A stretch of 64,000 bases of DNA, from assembly GCA_964433615.1 (NCBI GenBank), contig CAYSRZ010000001.1, forward strand, positions 1,366 to 65,365. The letters are read 5' to 3'. The notes under the pieces are model-generated. The model saw nothing but the letters and a program-made list of their open reading frames with translations. It was not told the DNA's origin and did no database searches. This document shows, piece after piece, positions 1,915-64,000 of the stretch. Position 1 is the first letter of the stretch. Each line of letters begins with the position of its first letter. Origin of the DNA: an uncultured Acidimicrobium sp. (GTDB taxonomy: Bacteria; Actinomycetota; Acidimicrobiia; Acidimicrobiales; Ilumatobacteraceae). A program made the position numbers and the translations under genes.

Positions 1915-3665
1915 GAGCCCTCCCTCGCCCGCCGGTCACTTTCGTAGGACTCGATCAGCGAACGGTAATCAGCAGAGGAAGCCAGGAGTTCTTCATGCGT
2001 GCCGTGTGCCCGAACTGAACCTTGGTCCATGTACACGACTCGGTCAGCGACGGCAACGGTCGACGGTCGTGACGCGACGATCACGCACGAAAGTCCCTCG
2101 ATCGCCTTGAGTCGACGAACGATGGTCTGCTCCGTCGTCGGGTCGAGCGCGCTCGTCGTGTCGTCGATGAGCAGCACTGGGGCGTTGCGATAGAGCGCAC
2201 GTGCTAGTGCCACACGCTGCCGTTGGCCGCCGCTGAGCGACACTCCCCGTTCACCGACCATCGTCTCGACTCCGTCGGGCAGATCGTCCACGAACGACAG
2301 GGCATCTGCGTCGAAGAGGGCGCGTCGCAGCCCGGACTCGTCTCGAGCGGCCCCGAGGCAGACGTTCGCTGCGATCGTTCCCGACAGGAGGAATGCTTCC
2401 TGGAAGACCATCGCGGGTTCACCTGCCGACCAGGTGACGGAGCCTGAGTTCGGCGACAGCAAACCGCCTGCGATGCGCAAGAGCGTCGACTTACCGGATC
2501 CCGTTCGACCGACGATGGCGACGATCTCCCCTCGAGCGACCTCCATCGAAACGCCGTCGACGACTGCCGCGGACGAACCGGGGAACGAAAACGTGCAGTC
2601 GCGGATCGTGAGCACACTCGACCCAGACTTCTGCCGATGTGGCGGGGTCGTCGGGTGGATCTGTTCGTCGAGTATTCCCGACACGCGTTTCCAACCGCTC
2701 GCGGAGTGTGGTACCTCGCTCAATACGTAGCCGATGATGCGGAGCGGAAAGATGAGCAACGTGAACAGATAGATGAAGCTCGACAACTCTCCGAGCGTCA
2801 TCGCGCCGGCGCCAACTCGATGGGCGCCGATCAGGATCAGGAGCACGTTGAACGAAGCTGGAACGAAGTCGAGCAACGCCTCGAAGGTGCTGCGTGCATA
2901 GACCGCACGAATCCGCGCATCGCGCAACCTCCCGGAGATCGTCGACAATCGTCGAGTTTCCCGTTCCTCAGCGCCGAACACCTTGACGACGAGGACGCCT
3001 TCGAAGCTCTCGTGGACCGCTTCGGATAGGGCCCCTAGCTCGTGCTGAGCCCGGTCGTAGAAGACGTCGATGCGTTTCTGGTAACCCACGTTCAACGCAA
3101 GTAGACACGGAATGAGGAGTAGCGCGACCAATCCCAGTGGAACATCGACGATGATCAGCCAGATGCTCGACGCCACGACGAGGACGACGACCGACGTGCT
3201 GAACGGAAGGGGTGCGAGAACCCCTACGGTTGCGTCGACGTCGACCCCGACCCGAGAAACGAGATCACCCGTCATCTGCTGACCATGCCATTGGGCCGGC
3301 TGGCCCATGACCTTGGTCGCAACGGCGTCCGAGATCTTCGCTGCCACGTTCCACTCCGTGACCCCGGCGAACGATCGGCGCACGACGACCCCGGCGGCCC
3401 TCGTGACACCGATACCGACGATCAGACTGCCGGCAATTACGTAACGAGAAGTCGGGAGCGACCCGTCCGAAAAGTAGGCGATGATGACGTTGTCGATGGT
3501 CCAGCCGACCGCAAAACTCGACGCAACCGTGCACAACGCATAGATCGCGGCCCCGGTGACGGCGATTGCGAACGTTGCTGGCTCGTGACGGACCAGGACC
3601 TTGAGGAGCGTCACTGCCTGACGAAGGCGAGAAGACGATTCCGTCGTCGTTGTGGTGGGGGTCAC
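1911..3665 (-). CDS. ABC exporter, fused permease/ATPase subunit (partner of 136-1914)
   Basis: 584 aa. TM domain, Walker A GRTGSGKST, signature LSGGQRQR, Walker B LLIDDTTSALD. 4-nt stop/start overlap with the downstream subunit. Confidence 0.9.
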   Translation of the reverse strand: MTPTTTTTESSSRLRQAVTLLKVLVRHEPATFAIAVTGAAIYALCTVASSFAVGWTIDNVIIAYFSDGSLPTSRYVIAGSLIVGIGVTRAAGVVVRRSFAGVTEWNVAAKISDAVATKVMGQPAQWHGQQMTGDLVSRVGVDVDATVGVLAPLPFSTSVVVLVVASSIWLIIVDVPLGLVALLLIPCLLALNVGYQKRIDVFYDRAQHELGALSEAVHESFEGVLVVKVFGAEERETRRLSTISGRLRDARIRAVYARSTFEALLDFVPASFNVLLILIGAHRVGAGAMTLGELSSFIYLFTLLIFPLRIIGYVLSEVPHSASGWKRVSGILDEQIHPTTPPHRQKSGSSVLTIRDCTFSFPGSSAAVVDGVSMEVARGEIVAIVGRTGSGKSTLLRIAGGLLSPNSGSVTWSAGEPAMVFQEAFLLSGTIAANVCLGAARDESGLRRALFDADALSFVDDLPDGVETMVGERGVSLSGGQRQRVALARALYRNAPVLLIDDTTSALDPTTEQTIVRRLKAIEGLSCVIVASRPSTVAVADRVVYMDQGSVRAHGTHEELLASSADYRSLIESYESDRRAREGS

Positions 3666-3713
3666 GTGACGAGTGTATTACTGCACCTCGAAGGCGTCGT
3701 TACACTCGCAGTC

Positions 3714-4235
3714 GTGTCAACGCGACAGACCATCGCACGAACGGCGATCGTGTTGGCGATCTTCCTCACCAGCGCAATGTGGTTGTATGCGTTCGTCTTT
3801 GCTTCTCGAGAAGCCGTGAACAAGATTGGGGACGCCATCTGGCAGGCACGGGCCGAGAGCCTGTGTGCACAGGCGCTATCTGATCGACTCGCGCTTGCCG
3901 ACTTTCGATTGATCGAAGATGCGGGCCCCGACGCCCTCGCAGAACGAGCCGACATCGTGGACAAGGCCACCGACATCGTGGAGGAAATGGTGCGTGCCAT
4001 CGCAGCTGAGCCTCCGACCGACGACAAGGGCCTCGCCTTGGTCCCCCAGTGGATTGCCGACTACGAGACGTACGTCCAGGATCGTCGCGACTACGCAGAT
4101 TTGCTGCGCAGTGGAATCAATGAACCCTTCAGCGAGACGATGATCGACGGACTGCCACTTTCCGAGAAGATCTCGACGTTTGCCGCGGACAACCTTGCAC
4201 CAAGCTGCAAACCGCCGATCGATCTATCGGTCTGA
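3714..4235 (+). CDS. Hypothetical membrane-anchored protein
   Basis: C-terminal part of ORF 3285-4235. One N-terminal TM helix (AIVLAIFLTSAMWLYAFVFA) followed by a soluble domain. The ORF upstream of about 3666 is antisense to the ABC gene. Start set at in-frame GTG 3714 (alternative GTG 3666). No family recognised. Confidence 0.45.
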   Translation: MSTRQTIARTAIVLAIFLTSAMWLYAFVFASREAVNKIGDAIWQARAESLCAQALSDRLALADFRLIEDAGPDALAERADIVDKATDIVEEMVRAIAAEPPTDDKGLALVPQWIADYETYVQDRRDYADLLRSGINEPFSETMIDGLPLSEKISTFAADNLAPSCKPPIDLSV

Positions 4236-4877
4236 GCCGGAGAGGAACTGCGAGCTCGGTCGCCACTTTCCGTCAGCGTCTCGGATACGAATGATTCGCG
4301 CAGGATTTCCCACAGCGACGCAGTAATCGGGTAGGTCCTTCGTTACGACACTGTGCGCCCCAACGGCGACGTGTCGTCCGATGGTCACTCCGGGAAGAAC
4401 CACGACCCCGTGACCGAGCCAAGAACCAGCTCCGATTCTCACCGCTCGCTCGGGCTGCGTCTGTTGCGAAATCGGTCGTGTTGGGTCCTCGTAGCCATGG
4501 TTCTGATCGGTGATGTAGACGTGGTGTCCGGTCCACACATCGTCTTCGATGACGATCGACAAATGTCCGACGATCCCACTCCCCCTGCCGATGAGGACGC
4601 GGTCCCCGATCGACACCACCGGGTCATTGAAGCAGATTTGTCCCGGCATCATGCCCGCCGACAACGCGACATGGGATCCGATCATCGTGTCTGACCCGAT
4701 GCGGATGTATTTCTCGCCGAAGATGGTCGTCTGGGGGAACAAGATGACGCTGCGCTCCCCGAAGGCACCAAATCGTTTGCCCTTGGGCGTCGAAGCCCCG
4801 ATCGCGCCGTATGCCTCGAGCCACGACCACACCCGAGGAGCCAAACGCTCCGACAGGCGGTGTGGAAGGAATCTCAC
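4224..4877 (-). CDS. Hexapeptide-repeat (left-handed beta-helix) acyl/acetyltransferase
   Basis: 217 aa with repeated [LIV]-G-x-x-x-x hexapeptides (IGSDTMIGSHVALSAG, IGDRVLIGRGSGIVGH, IGAGSWLGHGVVVLPGVTIG). Confidence 0.75.
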   Translation of the reverse strand: MRFLPHRLSERLAPRVWSWLEAYGAIGASTPKGKRFGAFGERSVILFPQTTIFGEKYIRIGSDTMIGSHVALSAGMMPGQICFNDPVVSIGDRVLIGRGSGIVGHLSIVIEDDVWTGHHVYITDQNHGYEDPTRPISQQTQPERAVRIGAGSWLGHGVVVLPGVTIGRHVAVGAHSVVTKDLPDYCVAVGNPARIIRIRDADGKWRPSSQFLSGSDR

Positions 4878-4906
4878 GCCAACGAATCTACCGTTAGCCT
4901 GATTTC

Positions 4907-5704
4907 GTGCGTCCGCGAGTCACCGCTCCCGTCGTTCGCTCGCGCAAGGGTGGCACCGTCCCACTGACGATGATCACCGCCTACGACGCGACCTTTGCCC
5001 GCATCGTCGACGAGTCCGGAGTCGACATGATCCTCGTTGGTGACTCGGTTGGCTCGGTGGTCCAAGGCGTCGGAACCACGATCCCCGTGACGATCGAAGA
5101 GATGGAATACCACGTTCGACTCGTTGCACGCGCGAACCCGAAGGCCCTCATTGTCGGCGACCTTCCCTTTGGTTCGTATCACGTCAATAGCGAGCAAGGT
5201 GTTCGCAGTGCGATCCAGCTGATCAAGGCTGGCGCATCGGCGGTCAAGCTCGAAGGTGGCAAGACGATGTACGACACGATCTCTGCAATCTGCCGAGTGG
5301 ACATTCCTGTGATGGGCCACATCGGTCTCACGCCTCAGAGCTACCACCGCATGGGAGGCCACAAGGTGCAGGGTCGCGACTTCGAGGGCCGCGATCGCAT
5401 CCTCGAGGACGCCAAGTCCGTTGAAGCAGCAGGTGCCTTTGCGGTCGTCATCGAAGGCGTACCCCGCGACCTCGCCGGTGAAGTCACGAAAACCGTCACC
5501 ATCCCCACGATTGGAATCGGGGCCGGTCCCGACACCGATGGCCAGGTCCTCGTCCTCCACGACATCCTCGGATTGAGTCCTCATCCGCCGTCATTTGCAC
5601 GCAGCTATGCGAACGTCGGACAGATCGCGCGCGATGCATGTCAGCAATTCGTCCGCTCGGTGCAGGATCGTTCCTGGCCCGACGACGCGCACTCTTTCGA
5701 TTGA
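4907..5704 (+). CDS. panB: 3-methyl-2-oxobutanoate hydroxymethyltransferase
   Basis: Close PanB match: ITAYDATFARIVDESGVDMILVGDSVG, DLPFGSY, VKLEGG, GHIGLTPQS, IPTIGIGAG. Confidence 0.9.
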   Translation: MRPRVTAPVVRSRKGGTVPLTMITAYDATFARIVDESGVDMILVGDSVGSVVQGVGTTIPVTIEEMEYHVRLVARANPKALIVGDLPFGSYHVNSEQGVRSAIQLIKAGASAVKLEGGKTMYDTISAICRVDIPVMGHIGLTPQSYHRMGGHKVQGRDFEGRDRILEDAKSVEAAGAFAVVIEGVPRDLAGEVTKTVTIPTIGIGAGPDTDGQVLVLHDILGLSPHPPSFARSYANVGQIARDACQQFVRSVQDRSWPDDAHSFD

Positions 5705-5706
5705 CG

Positions 5707-6561
5707 ATGCTGATCCTGGACTCAATCGAGGCCGCACGGGTCTGGAGGGCGAGCGTCAGACAGGACCATAGAGTCGGACTCGTTCCGACGATGGGTGCAC
5801 TCCACGCCGGGCATGGACGGTGCATCACATCCTGTTCCGCGACATGCGACGTGACCGTCGTGTCGATCTTCGTGAACCGCTCGCAATTCGGTGACCCGAA
5901 CGACTTCGACTCCTATCCGCGGACATGGAATGAGGACCTCACGCTCGCCCAACAGGCTGGTGCAGACGTCGTCTTTGCCCCCCGAGAAGCAGAGATGGCC
6001 CCGCTCATGGCCGCAAGCCCACGACACGCCGGCCCACTCGCCTCACTCTGGGAGGGACGCCATCGACCTGGCCACTTCGACGCTGTCGTCACTGTCGTGA
6101 ACCAGCTGTTTTCGGTCGTCAGGCCGAACCGCGCACGTTTCGGTGAAAAGGATCGCCAGCAACTCGCCGTGATCCGCACGTGGTCCACCATCGAATGGCC
6201 CTCCATCGTCATCGACGCAGAACCGACCGTCCGCGAAGCAGACGGCCTCGCCATGTCGAGTCGAAACGTGCGACTCACCCGCGCTGCGCGGGTCGAGGCA
6301 ACGACGCTGCATCGGGCACTCGACGCAATGCAGCAACGATTCGCCCTCGGTGAGCGGTCGACGAGAACGCTCCTCGACGCTGGTAGGTCGACCATTTCAC
6401 CCGTTTTCGAACTTGACTACCTCGCCGTCGTCGATCCCACGTCTTTCGACGAGGTTGATAGAGCGCAGAGCGGAACAGTCGCGATCGTTGCTGCGACCAT
6501 CGACGGTGTCAGACTCATCGACAACGTGTCCTTGGTGGAACCTTCGAAGTCAGCGACGTAG
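5707..6561 (+). CDS. panC: Pantoate--beta-alanine ligase
   Basis: VGLVPTMGALHAGH HIGH-type motif, SIFVNRSQF, MSSRN. ATG 5707 lies just after the panB stop; the longer ORF start at 5638 overlaps panB. Confidence 0.9.
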   Translation: MLILDSIEAARVWRASVRQDHRVGLVPTMGALHAGHGRCITSCSATCDVTVVSIFVNRSQFGDPNDFDSYPRTWNEDLTLAQQAGADVVFAPREAEMAPLMAASPRHAGPLASLWEGRHRPGHFDAVVTVVNQLFSVVRPNRARFGEKDRQQLAVIRTWSTIEWPSIVIDAEPTVREADGLAMSSRNVRLTRAARVEATTLHRALDAMQQRFALGERSTRTLLDAGRSTISPVFELDYLAVVDPTSFDEVDRAQSGTVAIVAATIDGVRLIDNVSLVEPSKSAT

Positions 6562-61396: not shown

Positions 61397-62116
61397 CTAT
61401 GGGCGATGCTCGAACATTGCGTTGCTGCGAAGTCGTCTTTCGTTGTGGAACTCCATGGCGCGCGAGGCGAGCCCGGTCACCTCGGACGTGGCCGACGACT
61501 CTGCGACCTGCAACGCAGCGACCAGTTGTCCTCCGAGAATCTGGCGCAACAGCCCGAGAGCCGACGGGGAGATCGACGGACCCGTTCGACAGGAGGAGCA
61601 CTGCACTCCTCCGTTGGCCACGTCGAAGGCGACGATGTCGCCTCCGGAACCGCACCCGATGCATTTTTCGACCTGCGGGGCAAGTCCCTCCGAGGCGAGC
61701 AACTTCCAATAGAACGCGGCGACGAGCACCGGGGACGGACTCTGTGCGAGCGTCGAGACCGCGCCGACCAGCATGCGGTAGATCTCCGGGCACGCCTCAC
61801 GGTCAGCAGACATGTGATCGGCGCCCTCCAGCAACGCCATCCCTGAGGTCAACACGTCGAGATCCGCACGCAGTTCTGGATGGGCCGAGACGAGTTCGAC
61901 TTGGGACACGACGTCGAGGTCCCGTCCCTTGTGCAGCAGGACGTCGACGTGGTTGAGCGGCTCGAGTCGTGCACCGATCTTCGACGTGGTCTTGCGCACG
62001 CCCTTGGCGACCGCGCGCACCTTGCCGTGGTGCTCGGTGAGCAACACGACGATGCGATCCGCCTCGCCAAGTTTGTAGGTTCGAAGCACGATCGCCCGAT
62101 CCCGGTAGTTCGTCAC
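61397..62116 (-). CDS. recO: DNA repair protein RecO
   Basis: AIVLRTYKLGEADRIV OB-fold start, Cys4 zinc site (CIGCGS...CSSC). Confidence 0.9.
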   Translation of the reverse strand: MTNYRDRAIVLRTYKLGEADRIVVLLTEHHGKVRAVAKGVRKTTSKIGARLEPLNHVDVLLHKGRDLDVVSQVELVSAHPELRADLDVLTSGMALLEGADHMSADREACPEIYRMLVGAVSTLAQSPSPVLVAAFYWKLLASEGLAPQVEKCIGCGSGGDIVAFDVANGGVQCSSCRTGPSISPSALGLLRQILGGQLVAALQVAESSATSEVTGLASRAMEFHNERRLRSNAMFEHRP

Positions 62117-62715
62117 GAGTCGATTCCTCCGAAACGACGCTCACGGCGCTCGAAATCGTCGACCGCCATCTCCACGTGCTCTGCGTTGAATTCGCTCCAC
62201 GGGACGTTGAGGAACACGAGCTCGCTGTAGCCGAGTTCCCACACGAGCGACGGAGGAAGTCGGGTCGGATCTCCGAAGATGATCACGAGGTCTGGATCGT
62301 CGAGCGCAGGATTGAGGATGGCGTTCTTCAACTCCTGTTCGTCGAAGTCGGGACTCGACAAGGAGTTCACCGCGTTGACGATGCGGTCGCGGCCGTCCGC
62401 GCACGTGTCGACGATCACGACGACGCCCCGTCGACTGACGTGCCAGACACGGTCCCCGCGACGCGTCCCGAAGAGCGCGTCGATCAGCCTGCCGATCAGG
62501 GCTTCGCGGTCATGCGTCGACGATGAACCAGACGTCGGACAGATGGTGATCCATCGGGCACCCATCGCCGCGACGCTGTCCACGACCGCGTCGATCTGTC
62601 GTGACCACTGTGCGGCGTCCGTTGAGCACCACTCCTCGAGGGTGCCACCACACACGACGACGTGCGACATCGCGTGCGAACCAGACGTTGGTCGAGAGAT
62701 TTCGCCGGTCGCCAT
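62113..62715 (-). CDS. Degenerate cis-prenyltransferase (UppS-fold) paralog lacking catalytic motifs but retaining the C-terminal RXG tail
   Basis: Last 200 aa of ORF 62113-63564; the rest is antisense to uppS. PDLVIIFGDPTRLPPSLVWELGYSELVF, VPWSEF and FERRERRFGG align to UppS regions IV-V and the tail. MDGNxRWA is replaced by VVCGGTLEEWCS, and FSTENW by ICPTSGSS. Confidence 0.7.
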   Translation of the reverse strand: MATGEISRPTSGSHAMSHVVVCGGTLEEWCSTDAAQWSRQIDAVVDSVAAMGARWITICPTSGSSSTHDREALIGRLIDALFGTRRGDRVWHVSRRGVVVIVDTCADGRDRIVNAVNSLSSPDFDEQELKNAILNPALDDPDLVIIFGDPTRLPPSLVWELGYSELVFLNVPWSEFNAEHVEMAVDDFERRERRFGGIDS

Positions 62716-62757
62716 TCGTCCATTGTCGCACGCCCGCTCGGTAGTGTTGCCGACATC

Positions 62758-63453
62758 ATGAGCGTCATTGATCCACGCCCGAGCGGTGTGCACGTGGCGT
62801 GCATCATGGACGGCAACGGTCGTTGGGCTCGCCGTCGTGGCCTGCCAAGAACCGAGGGCCACACCGCAGGCGAAGAAAACCTCGCCGAGGTCGTTCGCCA
62901 CGCTGCCCGGCGCAACGTCGGTTGGCTCACCGTGTTCGGCTTCAGCACCGAGAACTGGATTCGTCCACGGGCCGAGGTTCGCCACATCCTGTCGCTGCAC
63001 AAGAAACTGTTCGGACGTCTTGAGGAGTTGAACGAAAACAACGTGCGGGTGCGCTGGATCGGTCGTCCGTTCGACGAGCCTGAGGCCAAGACGCCAAGCG
63101 TCGTCCAGCGCGCCATCCGCCAGGCCATCGAAGACACGGCGCACAACACCGGCATGGTGCTGACCGTGGCGTTCGACTACGGCAGCCGAGCAGAAATCCT
63201 GCGCGCGGCACAGCGCGCGAAGAAGCTTCGTTCGGTCGTCGGGCCGACAGACATCGACCGGGAGATGTACCTTCCCGACCTGCCGAAGGTGGACCTCTTG
63301 GTGCGAACTTCCGGTGAGTCGCGGATCTCGAACTTCCTGCTCTGGCAGATCCCCGAATCGCGGATCTATTTCACCGAGCGCACCTGGCCTGATTTCGATG
63401 CATCCGAGTTCGACGCCGCGCTCGCGCTGCTCGATCGCTCGACCAACCCATGA
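62758..63453 (+). CDS. uppS: Isoprenyl (undecaprenyl/decaprenyl) diphosphate synthase, cis-prenyltransferase, C-terminally short
   Basis: VACIMDGNGRWARRRGLPR, FGFSTENW, DYGSRAEI, LLVRTSGESRISNFLLWQ, WPDF. The protein ends ...ALALLDRSTNP with no RRFGG tail. Confidence 0.9.
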   Translation: MSVIDPRPSGVHVACIMDGNGRWARRRGLPRTEGHTAGEENLAEVVRHAARRNVGWLTVFGFSTENWIRPRAEVRHILSLHKKLFGRLEELNENNVRVRWIGRPFDEPEAKTPSVVQRAIRQAIEDTAHNTGMVLTVAFDYGSRAEILRAAQRAKKLRSVVGPTDIDREMYLPDLPKVDLLVRTSGESRISNFLLWQIPESRIYFTERTWPDFDASEFDAALALLDRSTNP

Positions 63454-64000
63454 CCACGTTGTCGGTCGACGACCTCCTCGACGCCACAGTCGCATCGCTC
63501 GAGCATGCAGAGTCACGACCCGGACAGGCGACGATGGCACGCGAGATCGCCTCGTCGATCGCAACCGGCCGCCATCTCATCGCCCAAGCCGGCACGGGCA
63601 CGGGCAAGTCACTCGGATACCTCGTCCCCGTGGCCATGTCGGAAAAACGCACGATCGTTGCCACCTACACGAAGGCTCTCCAGGACCAACTGGCCCGATT
63701 CGACCTCCCACTCATTGCGTCAGTGGTGCGCGAGGAACTTGGTCGCGAGCTGAGCTACTGCGTCTTGAAGGGACGCAGCAACTACGTCTGTCTGCAGCGT
63801 GTCGACGAACTCACCGAGAGATCCTCTCGTGAACTGGACCTCGACCGTGCATCGTCCAACGCGATGAAAAAGATCATTTCCTGGTCCGCCACGACCACGA
63901 CCGGAGACGTCGGGGACATCGATTGGCCGATTTCAGATGACACCTGGAAGCAGGTTTCGGTGACGAGCGACGAGTGCCCGGGCGCCCGCAAGTGCCCACG
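63450..64000 (+). CDS. dinG: DinG-family ATP-dependent DNA helicase, N-terminal fragment (runs off the right edge)
   Basis: My translation from ATG 63450 (ATGA overlap with uppS): MTTLSVDDLL...HLIAQAGTGTGKSLGYLVP (Walker A), then Cys-containing segments (SYCVLKGRSNYVCLQ, SDECPGARKCP) typical of the Fe-S domain. The frame stays open to the window end. Confidence 0.8.
   Translation, partial: MTTLSVDDLLDATVASLEHAESRPGQATMAREIASSIATGRHLIAQAGTGTGKSLGYLVPVAMSEKRTIVATYTKALQDQLARFDLPLIASVVREELGRELSYCVLKGRSNYVCLQRVDELTERSSRELDLDRASSNAMKKIISWSATTTTGDVGDIDWPISDDTWKQVSVTSDECPGARKCP

Follow-up and report, generated by a model that had tools for sequence, protein, structure and literature searches.

The 64,000-nucleotide stretch of contig CAYSRZ010000001.1 from an uncultured Acidimicrobium sp. 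of the Ilumatobacteraceae that is analyzed here, and is referred to as the window, carries near its end two divergently oriented genes of the cis-prenyltransferase family, to which undecaprenyl diphosphate synthase (UPPS) belongs. The first, uppS (hereafter U), encodes a protein with a complete set of catalytic residues that ends before the C-terminal RXG motif; the second (hereafter P) encodes a paralog that has lost these residues and kept the motif. No PF01255 homologue other than these two was found in the 64-kb window. The features concerned are the following:

62758–63453, plus strand: uppS (U), catalytic cis-prenyltransferase subunit of 231 residues (PF01255 and TIGR00055 matches)
63450–63453, plus strand: ATGA overlap, the TGA of U lying inside the ATG of a downstream helicase gene, with no room for a tail (read from the sequence)
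62113–62715, minus strand: P, cis-prenyltransferase paralog of 200 residues, proposed RXG-donating accessory subunit (partial PF01255 match, residue alignment)
62125–62148, minus strand: codons of the P tail R190–G197 (RRERRFGG), including the RXG motif R194-F195-G196 (read from the sequence)
62716–62757: 42-bp gap separating the divergent start codons of P and U (read from the sequence)
61397–62116, minus strand: recO (RecO_N and RecO_C domains; TIGR00613, 130 bits)

A catalytic chain without tail and a tailed chain without catalytic residues

U matches the Pfam profile PF01255 over positions 1–209 of 219 (E = 1.6e-65, 221 bits for a cut-off of 27), the last ten or so profile positions being the sole part that is missing, and passes the TIGR00055 model of uppS with 205 bits (cut-off 109.55). 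The catalytic and substrate-binding set D26, R30, R39, H43, S71, N74, R77, R194, R200, and S202 (E. coli numbering) is complete in the window protein, and the same ten residues are kept in 77/77 of its relatives. The C-terminus reads ...ALALLDRSTNP followed by the stop codon, and the RXG motif, R242-F243-G244 in the E. coli enzyme, is absent. When an RRFGG-like peptide was sought in the 3 frames downstream of U, none was found. As the stop codon shares bases with the start codon of the following gene, whose product begins with MTTLSVDD... and contains AGTGTGKS, the missing tail is not due to a frameshift, and as the exact 231-residue sequence is present on 77 contigs (NCBI, JGI, Logan, ENA), the stop codon is not a sequencing error. 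These three observations together indicate that the loss is real; frameshift, which a previous reading of the letters without database searches (the sequence-only reading) had wished to see checked, and read-through are both ruled out by them.

P, on the other hand, matches PF01255 only at profile positions 116–219 (E = 1.6e-14, 54.5 bits, cut-off 27), and its TIGR00055 score of 36.8 bits lies under the cut-off of 109.55. The catalytic residues are not present. Its C-terminus is FERRERRFGGIDS, followed by the stop codon; residues R191, R193, R194, F195, and G196 are all invariant in alignment A1, and the same holds in alignment A3 except for F195, which is nearly invariant there. The locus is thus laid out as the sequence-only reading had described it, namely a U with all catalytic blocks that stops short of the RXG tail and, 42 bp away on the other strand, a 200-residue paralog without the catalytic regions that retains the C-terminal half and an RRFGG tail.

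P is under strong purifying selection: against a relative of 93% identity (locus L087), its ratio of nonsynonymous to synonymous substitution rates (dN/dS) is 0.055, the corresponding values being 0.055 in U and 0.049 in recO, with a calculation that leaves out the region around 3380–3440 (minus strand) of the L087 uppS. That region contains an ambiguous base (X) and an apparent frameshift within the DGNGRW block of uppS, which probably reflect the low assembly quality of this 4.8-kb contig. The last 65 residues of P, corresponding to the interface half and the tail, hold 20 of the 27 invariant positions (alignment A1). An AlphaFold2 model of the P monomer based on 64 homologues has a mean predicted local distance difference test score (pLDDT) of 89.3 and a predicted template modelling score (pTM) of 0.84, disorder being confined to the N-terminus and the tip of the tail; a Foldseek search with this model retrieved bacterial UPPS structures as the best PDB matches (template modelling, TM, scores of about 0.6–0.66), and the two results together point to a full-length UPPS fold. 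By every available measure, whether selection, conservation, or modelled fold, P is to be regarded as a functional protein. It diverges faster than U (mean pairwise identity 0.43 vs. 0.69), and the pairwise distances of the two are correlated (r = 0.82). The faster divergence fits what is known of accessory subunits, those of the eukaryotic heteromeric cis-prenyltransferases likewise diverging faster than their catalytic partners.

Public databases name the P homologue P0200 and many other relatives of P "Ditrans,polycis-undecaprenyl-diphosphate synthase" or "undecaprenyl diphosphate synthase (family protein)". Judged from the residues, this label is an over-annotation, since the catalytic residues are absent; it inflates the apparent enzyme content of these genomes.

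Conservation of the pair and reciprocity of its residues

The pair was surveyed in the 80 best loci from one-genome-per-species contigs, the six-frame open reading frames (ORFs) being classified by phmmer, and all statements below concern the loci inspected, i.e. these 80 and distant members such as L081, L083, and L087. A larger figure of 597 relatives as carriers of P was rejected because canonical Acidimicrobiales UppS shares the pattern WEL[AG]Y[SAG]E[LI]V that was used in the search. The order uppS (minus), divergent from P (plus), which is followed by recO (plus), is found in 76 of the 80 species-representative loci. The exceptions are L019, L021, and L047, probably cut by a contig end, and L020, where uppS lies approximately 2 kb off. 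Among genomes with both genes complete (Ilumatobacteraceae and relatives), UppS is tail-less in 76/76 and the paralog is tailed in 76/76, the co-occurrence for which the sequence-only reading had suggested a survey of related genomes. Each complete uppS of the 80 loci stops about 10–15 residues past WPDF, and every P carries an RXG tail, in the form RRFGG in 72/80, the others being RRFGS (3), RRFGN (1), and RRYGG (1). The distant L081 (39% identity), L083, and L087 retain the order helicase and U, divergent from P followed by recO, again with a tail-less U. Seen in all 76 genomes with both genes complete, the recurrence of the split-motif pattern is far beyond chance.

The P family comprises proteins of 190–200 residues from Ilumatobacteraceae and Acidimicrobiia genomes. 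P0200 (BAN02735.1 / WP_015441982.1) belongs to the cultured Ilumatobacter coccineus YM16-304, and locus L083 carries BAN02735.1. The pair is likely to be common in freshwater Acidimicrobiia, the Ilumatobacteraceae including the abundant freshwater acIV actinobacteria. Several metagenome-assembled genomes with this locus (L008, L012, L019–L021, L035, L038, L039, and others) are titled Bifidobacterium breve or Acidobacteria bacterium, further titles of this kind being Ferrithrix thermotolerans DSM 19514 and Acidimicrobium ferrooxidans DSM 10331; these look like mislabelled taxonomy, because gene order and sequence are almost identical to those of Ilumatobacteraceae metagenome-assembled genomes.

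For the residue-level comparison, the U and P sequences of shared genomes, 77 of each, were aligned with UPPS of E. coli and with DHDDS and NgBR of humans, the two human sequences being identical to PDB chains. Sixteen of the 17 tabulated catalytic residues are present in 77/77 U, and N28 in 76/77. Invariant in the 77 U are D26, G27, G29, R30, R39, H43, F70, S71, E73, N74, W75, and R77, as well as R194, E198, R200, and S202. None of the residues D26, R39, N74, R77, R194, and S202 is present in any of the 77 P, and D190, W207, R239, and R241 are kept in 77/77 P. The RXG tail is distributed inversely (0/77 U, 77/77 P). The substitutions are as follows, FPP and IPP standing for farnesyl and isopentenyl diphosphate:

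D26 (Mg2+ ligand, catalysis): D in 77 U; G in 77 P
R30 (FPP diphosphate): R in 77 U; E, Q, or D in P
R39, R77, and E81 (FPP site and nearby): kept in 77 U; R39 and E81 deleted in 77 P, R77 deleted in 73 P
N74 (catalytic base): N in 77 U; A, G, S, V, and others in P
R194 (IPP diphosphate): R in 77 U; V, I, or L in P
S202 (IPP binding): S in 77 U; P in 77 P
Y211 (interface strand): G, S, A, N, and others in U; Y in 77 P
E213 (interface strand): K (34), R (21), H (7), A (7), and others in U, never E; E in 77 P
R242 and G244 (RXG tail): in U, G244 and F243 absent in 77, R242 gapped in 63 and never R; present in 77 P

The family hidden Markov model and the alignment with the E. coli enzyme therefore bear out the reciprocal motif loss that had been noticed from the letters. 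The reciprocity extends to two residues of the interface strand, Y211 and E213, the equivalents of which are residues 198–200 of U (about 63349–63357, plus strand) and 163–165 of P (about 62221–62229, minus strand). In the E. coli enzyme, E213 presumably has a part in the binding of IPP, for which a literature search brought no confirmation. Position 213 is Cys in human DHDDS and Glu in NgBR, which parallels K/R/H/A in U vs. Glu in P. The two residues are kept in the chain where they would face a live site and drift in the chain where they would face a dead one, and this distribution, fitting action in trans, suggests that, like the RXG tail, they work across the dimer interface. In the human structure, NgBR R259, near position 213, forms, together with the RXG tail, polar networks that reach the DHDDS active site across the interface.

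A proposed heteromeric cis-prenyltransferase and its alternatives

The sequences agree with what defines the DHDDS/NgBR type of enzyme, a catalytic subunit without RXG motif and a non-catalytic homologue with a C-terminal one, and the two genes co-occur as expected of a heteromer, being divergent neighbours in 76/80 genomes and also in L081, L083, and L087. In homodimeric UPPS as in DHDDS/NgBR, the RXG tail crosses the dimer interface and completes the diphosphate-binding sites of the partner; the NgBR tail builds both substrate sites of DHDDS, which is poorly active alone, and the E. coli UPPS variant G244A does not support growth in a yeast complementation assay. The C-terminal half is the dimer interface in known cis-prenyltransferases. 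We therefore propose that U and P probably constitute a heteromeric cis-prenyltransferase in which the inactive P supplies the RXG tail in trans. The sequence-only reading had predicted a heteromer of this kind, and each of its proposed checks that was carried out in silico spoke for it. Such a heteromer would make the polyprenyl diphosphate lipid carrier. Its sole functional active site would be that of U, with the Mg2+ ligand Asp26 and the FPP-binding and IPP-binding residues; P would pair with U through its UPPS fold and C-terminal half and would insert its RRFGG tail into the U active site in place of the tail that U lacks. Positions 211 and 213 would drift in U since they would face the dead site of P. 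The split motifs and their conservation, the order of the genes, the selection acting on P, its modelled fold, and the sequence affinities are observed; heterodimer formation, insertion of the tail in trans, and dependence of the activity on P are what we infer from the sequences, and that the heteromer would be obligate is a prediction on the same basis.

Several points weigh against this proposal. The interaction between U and P is itself deduced; a second tailed cis-prenyltransferase elsewhere in the genome could make P, or the tail missing from U, irrelevant, the search having covered the 64-kb window and flanks of 6–10 kb; a tail-less U homodimer may keep some activity, as DHDDS homodimers retain low activity; a Lys or Arg is usual at position 213 of U (55/77), and this basic residue could in principle compensate in a U homodimer; and a set of related tailed paralogs, termed P2 and described below, has no catalytic partner within 10 kb, so that adjacency is not universal. 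The main rival to a heteromer draws on the last three of these points. It supposes that U needs no partner and is active as a tail-less homodimer, in which Lys/Arg at 213 perhaps takes the role of the tail arginine, and that P has another non-catalytic role, as a scaffold or with another partner. We consider it unlikely, yet still the best placed of the alternatives, for position 213 in U is variable (including His and Ala) in a manner that resembles relaxed constraint rather than a new function, the RXG tail and interface half are the most conserved parts of P, and loss of the tail in U coincides with its retention in P in 77/77 pairs.

Inactive paralogs often serve as regulators, and a 42-bp control region common to the divergent genes would permit coordinated expression. 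P could on this account be regulatory, drawing U into heterodimers of lower activity and so tuning carrier-lipid synthesis instead of making it possible, an explanation to which we attach a low probability: an inhibitor would need neither an invariant RRFGG tail nor Y211 and E213, and U would still require a source of the RXG motif. Less probable again is that P is an enzyme in its own right, its active site being unconventional, e.g. that of a non-canonical prenyltransferase. PF01255 does include members with altered chemistry, of which MM_0014 and cyclolavandulyl diphosphate synthase are weak PDB matches of P, but D26, the whole GNGR P-loop, R39, the FSxENW block, R77, R194, and S202 are gone from P and nothing is left to hold Mg2+ or the diphosphates. 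Finally, an artefact, be it a truncation of U by assembly or sequencing error or a P that is a decaying pseudogene, is already refuted by the identical U on 77 contigs, the lack of a tail in any frame, the ATGA overlap that recurs in relatives, the pattern in 76 genomes, and the dN/dS of 0.055 of P.

The heteromer proposed for U and P resembles human DHDDS/NgBR (NUS1), and yeast Rer2 or Srt1 with Nus1, in associating a complete catalytic subunit without RXG motif with a non-catalytic partner that carries it. Like NgBR, P resembles cis-prenyltransferases chiefly in its C-terminal half and is the less conserved subunit; unlike NgBR, it lacks an N-terminal membrane domain and its tail is of the bacterial RRFGG type, not RLG. 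U differs from DHDDS in that it has no C-terminal helix-turn-helix extension and simply stops. Moreover, the host is a bacterium and the product would presumably serve cell-envelope synthesis, not N-glycosylation in the endoplasmic reticulum. In its soluble, prokaryotic, two-component form, the pair resembles the archaeal MaUPPS-A/B of Methanosarcina (MM_1083/MM_0618) and Af1219/Af0707 of Archaeoglobus, in which a UPPS-like subunit without RXG motif is combined with an NgBR-like subunit that is free of transmembrane segments and has an RXG glycine required for activity. These archaeal heteromers are considered kin of the eukaryotic accessory lineage, whereas the U–P pair would have arisen within the Acidimicrobiales by the evidence of gene order, motifs, and a tree, in a comparison made without archaeal accessory sequences. 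With the homodimeric UPPS of E. coli, M. luteus, M. tuberculosis (Rv2361c), and T. fusca, U shares the fold and the catalytic residues, and P the fold, the C-terminal half, and the RRFGG tail; in these enzymes every chain combines an active site with a tail for its partner, whereas U and P place them on separate chains. Two different subunits are also needed for chain elongation by the bacterial hexaprenyl and heptaprenyl diphosphate synthases, medium-chain trans-prenyltransferases whose fold is unrelated and whose stereochemistry is opposite. Their small subunit is not known to be a degenerate copy that donates an active-site tail.

Heteromeric cis-prenyltransferases with an inactive RXG donor are established in animals, fungi, plants, Paramecium, Methanosarcina, and Archaeoglobus; reviews up to 2026 describe all characterized bacterial cis-prenyltransferases as homodimers (homomeric in one of 2026) and assign the heteromeric design to eukaryotes and some archaea. 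Our literature search for a bacterial heteromeric cis-prenyltransferase found no report in the library covered. The statement of the sequence-only reading that heteromers are otherwise reported only from eukaryotes and some methanogens has to be widened to include Archaeoglobus. The two-subunit design of a catalytic and an RXG-donating chain is accordingly already known, and what appears new from the sequences is its bacterial instance. If correct, it would overturn the textbook rule that bacterial members of this enzyme family are homodimeric and heteromers are for archaea and eukaryotes. U and P would also offer a soluble, anchor-free prokaryotic model of RXG-tail activation in trans for the human disease enzyme DHDDS/NgBR, in which the NUS1 mutation R290H disrupts this activation step, and the prediction is directly testable since Ilumatobacter coccineus YM16-304 is cultured.

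Origin of the paralog and organization of the neighbourhood

The likeness to DHDDS/NgBR that the sequence-only reading had put forward would be one of function and does not extend to orthology. The profile of P matches E. coli UPPS with E = 7e-21 and human NUS1 with 3e-7 to 2e-5, and P does not qualify as an NgBR/Nus1 orthologue in this comparison, made without archaeal accessory subunits. Canonical Acidimicrobiales UppS (e.g. P0471) contains DGNGRW, FSTENW, RTSGE.RISNFLLWELAYSELVF, and RRDRRYGG, and its gene lies in the order uppS, small membrane ORF, recO, radical SAM gene, glyS; in the window, P holds the place of this canonical uppS relative to recO. Q208E ("WE") and the RRDRR[F/Y]GG tail are common to P and canonical Acidimicrobiales UppS. 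In a neighbour-joining tree, which is crude and without archaeal accessory sequences, P groups with Acidimicrobiales UppS and U stands apart with other bacterial UPPS. The identities are 46% for U and P0471, 39% for U and E. coli UPPS, 29% for P and P0471, and 19% for P and U. NgBR falls inside the degenerate clade of this tree; a reading of this position as orthology was discarded in favour of long-branch attraction because the profile scores disagree with it.

P thus seems to derive from the uppS that was ancestrally linked to recO in Acidimicrobiales and not from NgBR/Nus1. A tentative scenario from these affinities is that a second cis-prenyltransferase lineage took over catalysis and the resident recO-linked uppS became the accessory subunit; the design would then likely be convergent with the archaeal and eukaryotic system, not inherited from it. 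That bacteria independently invented an obligate two-subunit enzyme, the recO-linked uppS of Ilumatobacteraceae having decayed to a tail donor and a second, more diverged copy having lost its tail and become dependent, seems to us rather more plausible than not, and would be a clear case of convergent subfunctionalization into an enzyme and an inactive partner.

An exhaustive profile search with P yielded 67 cluster representatives at E <= 1e-30. The weaker matches include P2, a distinct set of 200–263 residues with the motifs HVAWVAGG, LGVRWLTVQ, TGGDRRVPDLLLWEVAYSELVFLD, and RRDRRYGG. Like P, P2 has lost D26 and the FSxENW block and kept the tail, and it sits at the canonical uppS position upstream of recO in other Acidimicrobiales genomes. 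The loci of the P2 proteins P0389, P0399, P0403, and P0398 (alignment A4) are:

L084, 6001–6702
L085, 6001–6792
L168, 10001–10651
L169, 10001–10645

A catalytic cis-prenyltransferase was sought within 10 kb of P2 and none was found; scanning metagenomes with the P2 alignment brought up hardly anything but canonical full-length UppS, which is uninformative on a partner of P2. P2, which is less degenerate than P, may be a sister family representing an independent or intermediate stage of the same process.

The helicase gene downstream of U lies at 63450–64000 (plus strand) in the window, at 2070–3875 in L081, at 3346–5244 in L083, and at 839–2719 in L087; its equivalent in related loci carries DEAD and Helicase_C_2 domains, and the 4-bp overlap with U is also present in the called gene coordinates of L083 and L087. 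L085, a genome with P2, has a helicase of this kind (3536–5920) immediately next to P2 in divergent orientation, U being absent from between the two. The slot between helicase and paralog may therefore have gained U by insertion, or have lost it.

On the other side of the pair, the stop codon of P and the GTG start of recO overlap as GTGA (62113–62116), and P is followed by recO in 80/80 related loci. The sequence-only reading had described P as translationally coupled to recO; the overlap is as described, and the arrangement looks like a gene order inherited from uppS–recO and not like a functional link. In other Acidimicrobiales, an ORF of 86–123 residues without Pfam match lies between uppS (or P2) and recO, overlapping each neighbour by 4 bp in every one of the following loci:

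L084, 6699–6959
L085, 6789–7094
L086, 6723–6998
L168, 10648–10953
L169, 10642–11013

Its translations in L084–L086 have a hydrophobic N-terminus and a Pro/Gly-rich tail. The window is devoid of this ORF, P overlapping recO directly there.

A sigma-70 consensus scan of the intergenic gap 62716–62757 returned no promoter and is uninformative; the promoters may be of another type or lie inside coding regions. Visual inspection shows two hexamers, GACAAT, which ends 6 nt ahead of the ATG of P, and TAGTGT, which ends 10 nt ahead of that of U. Back-to-back promoters with leaderless transcripts are possible at this 42-bp gap.

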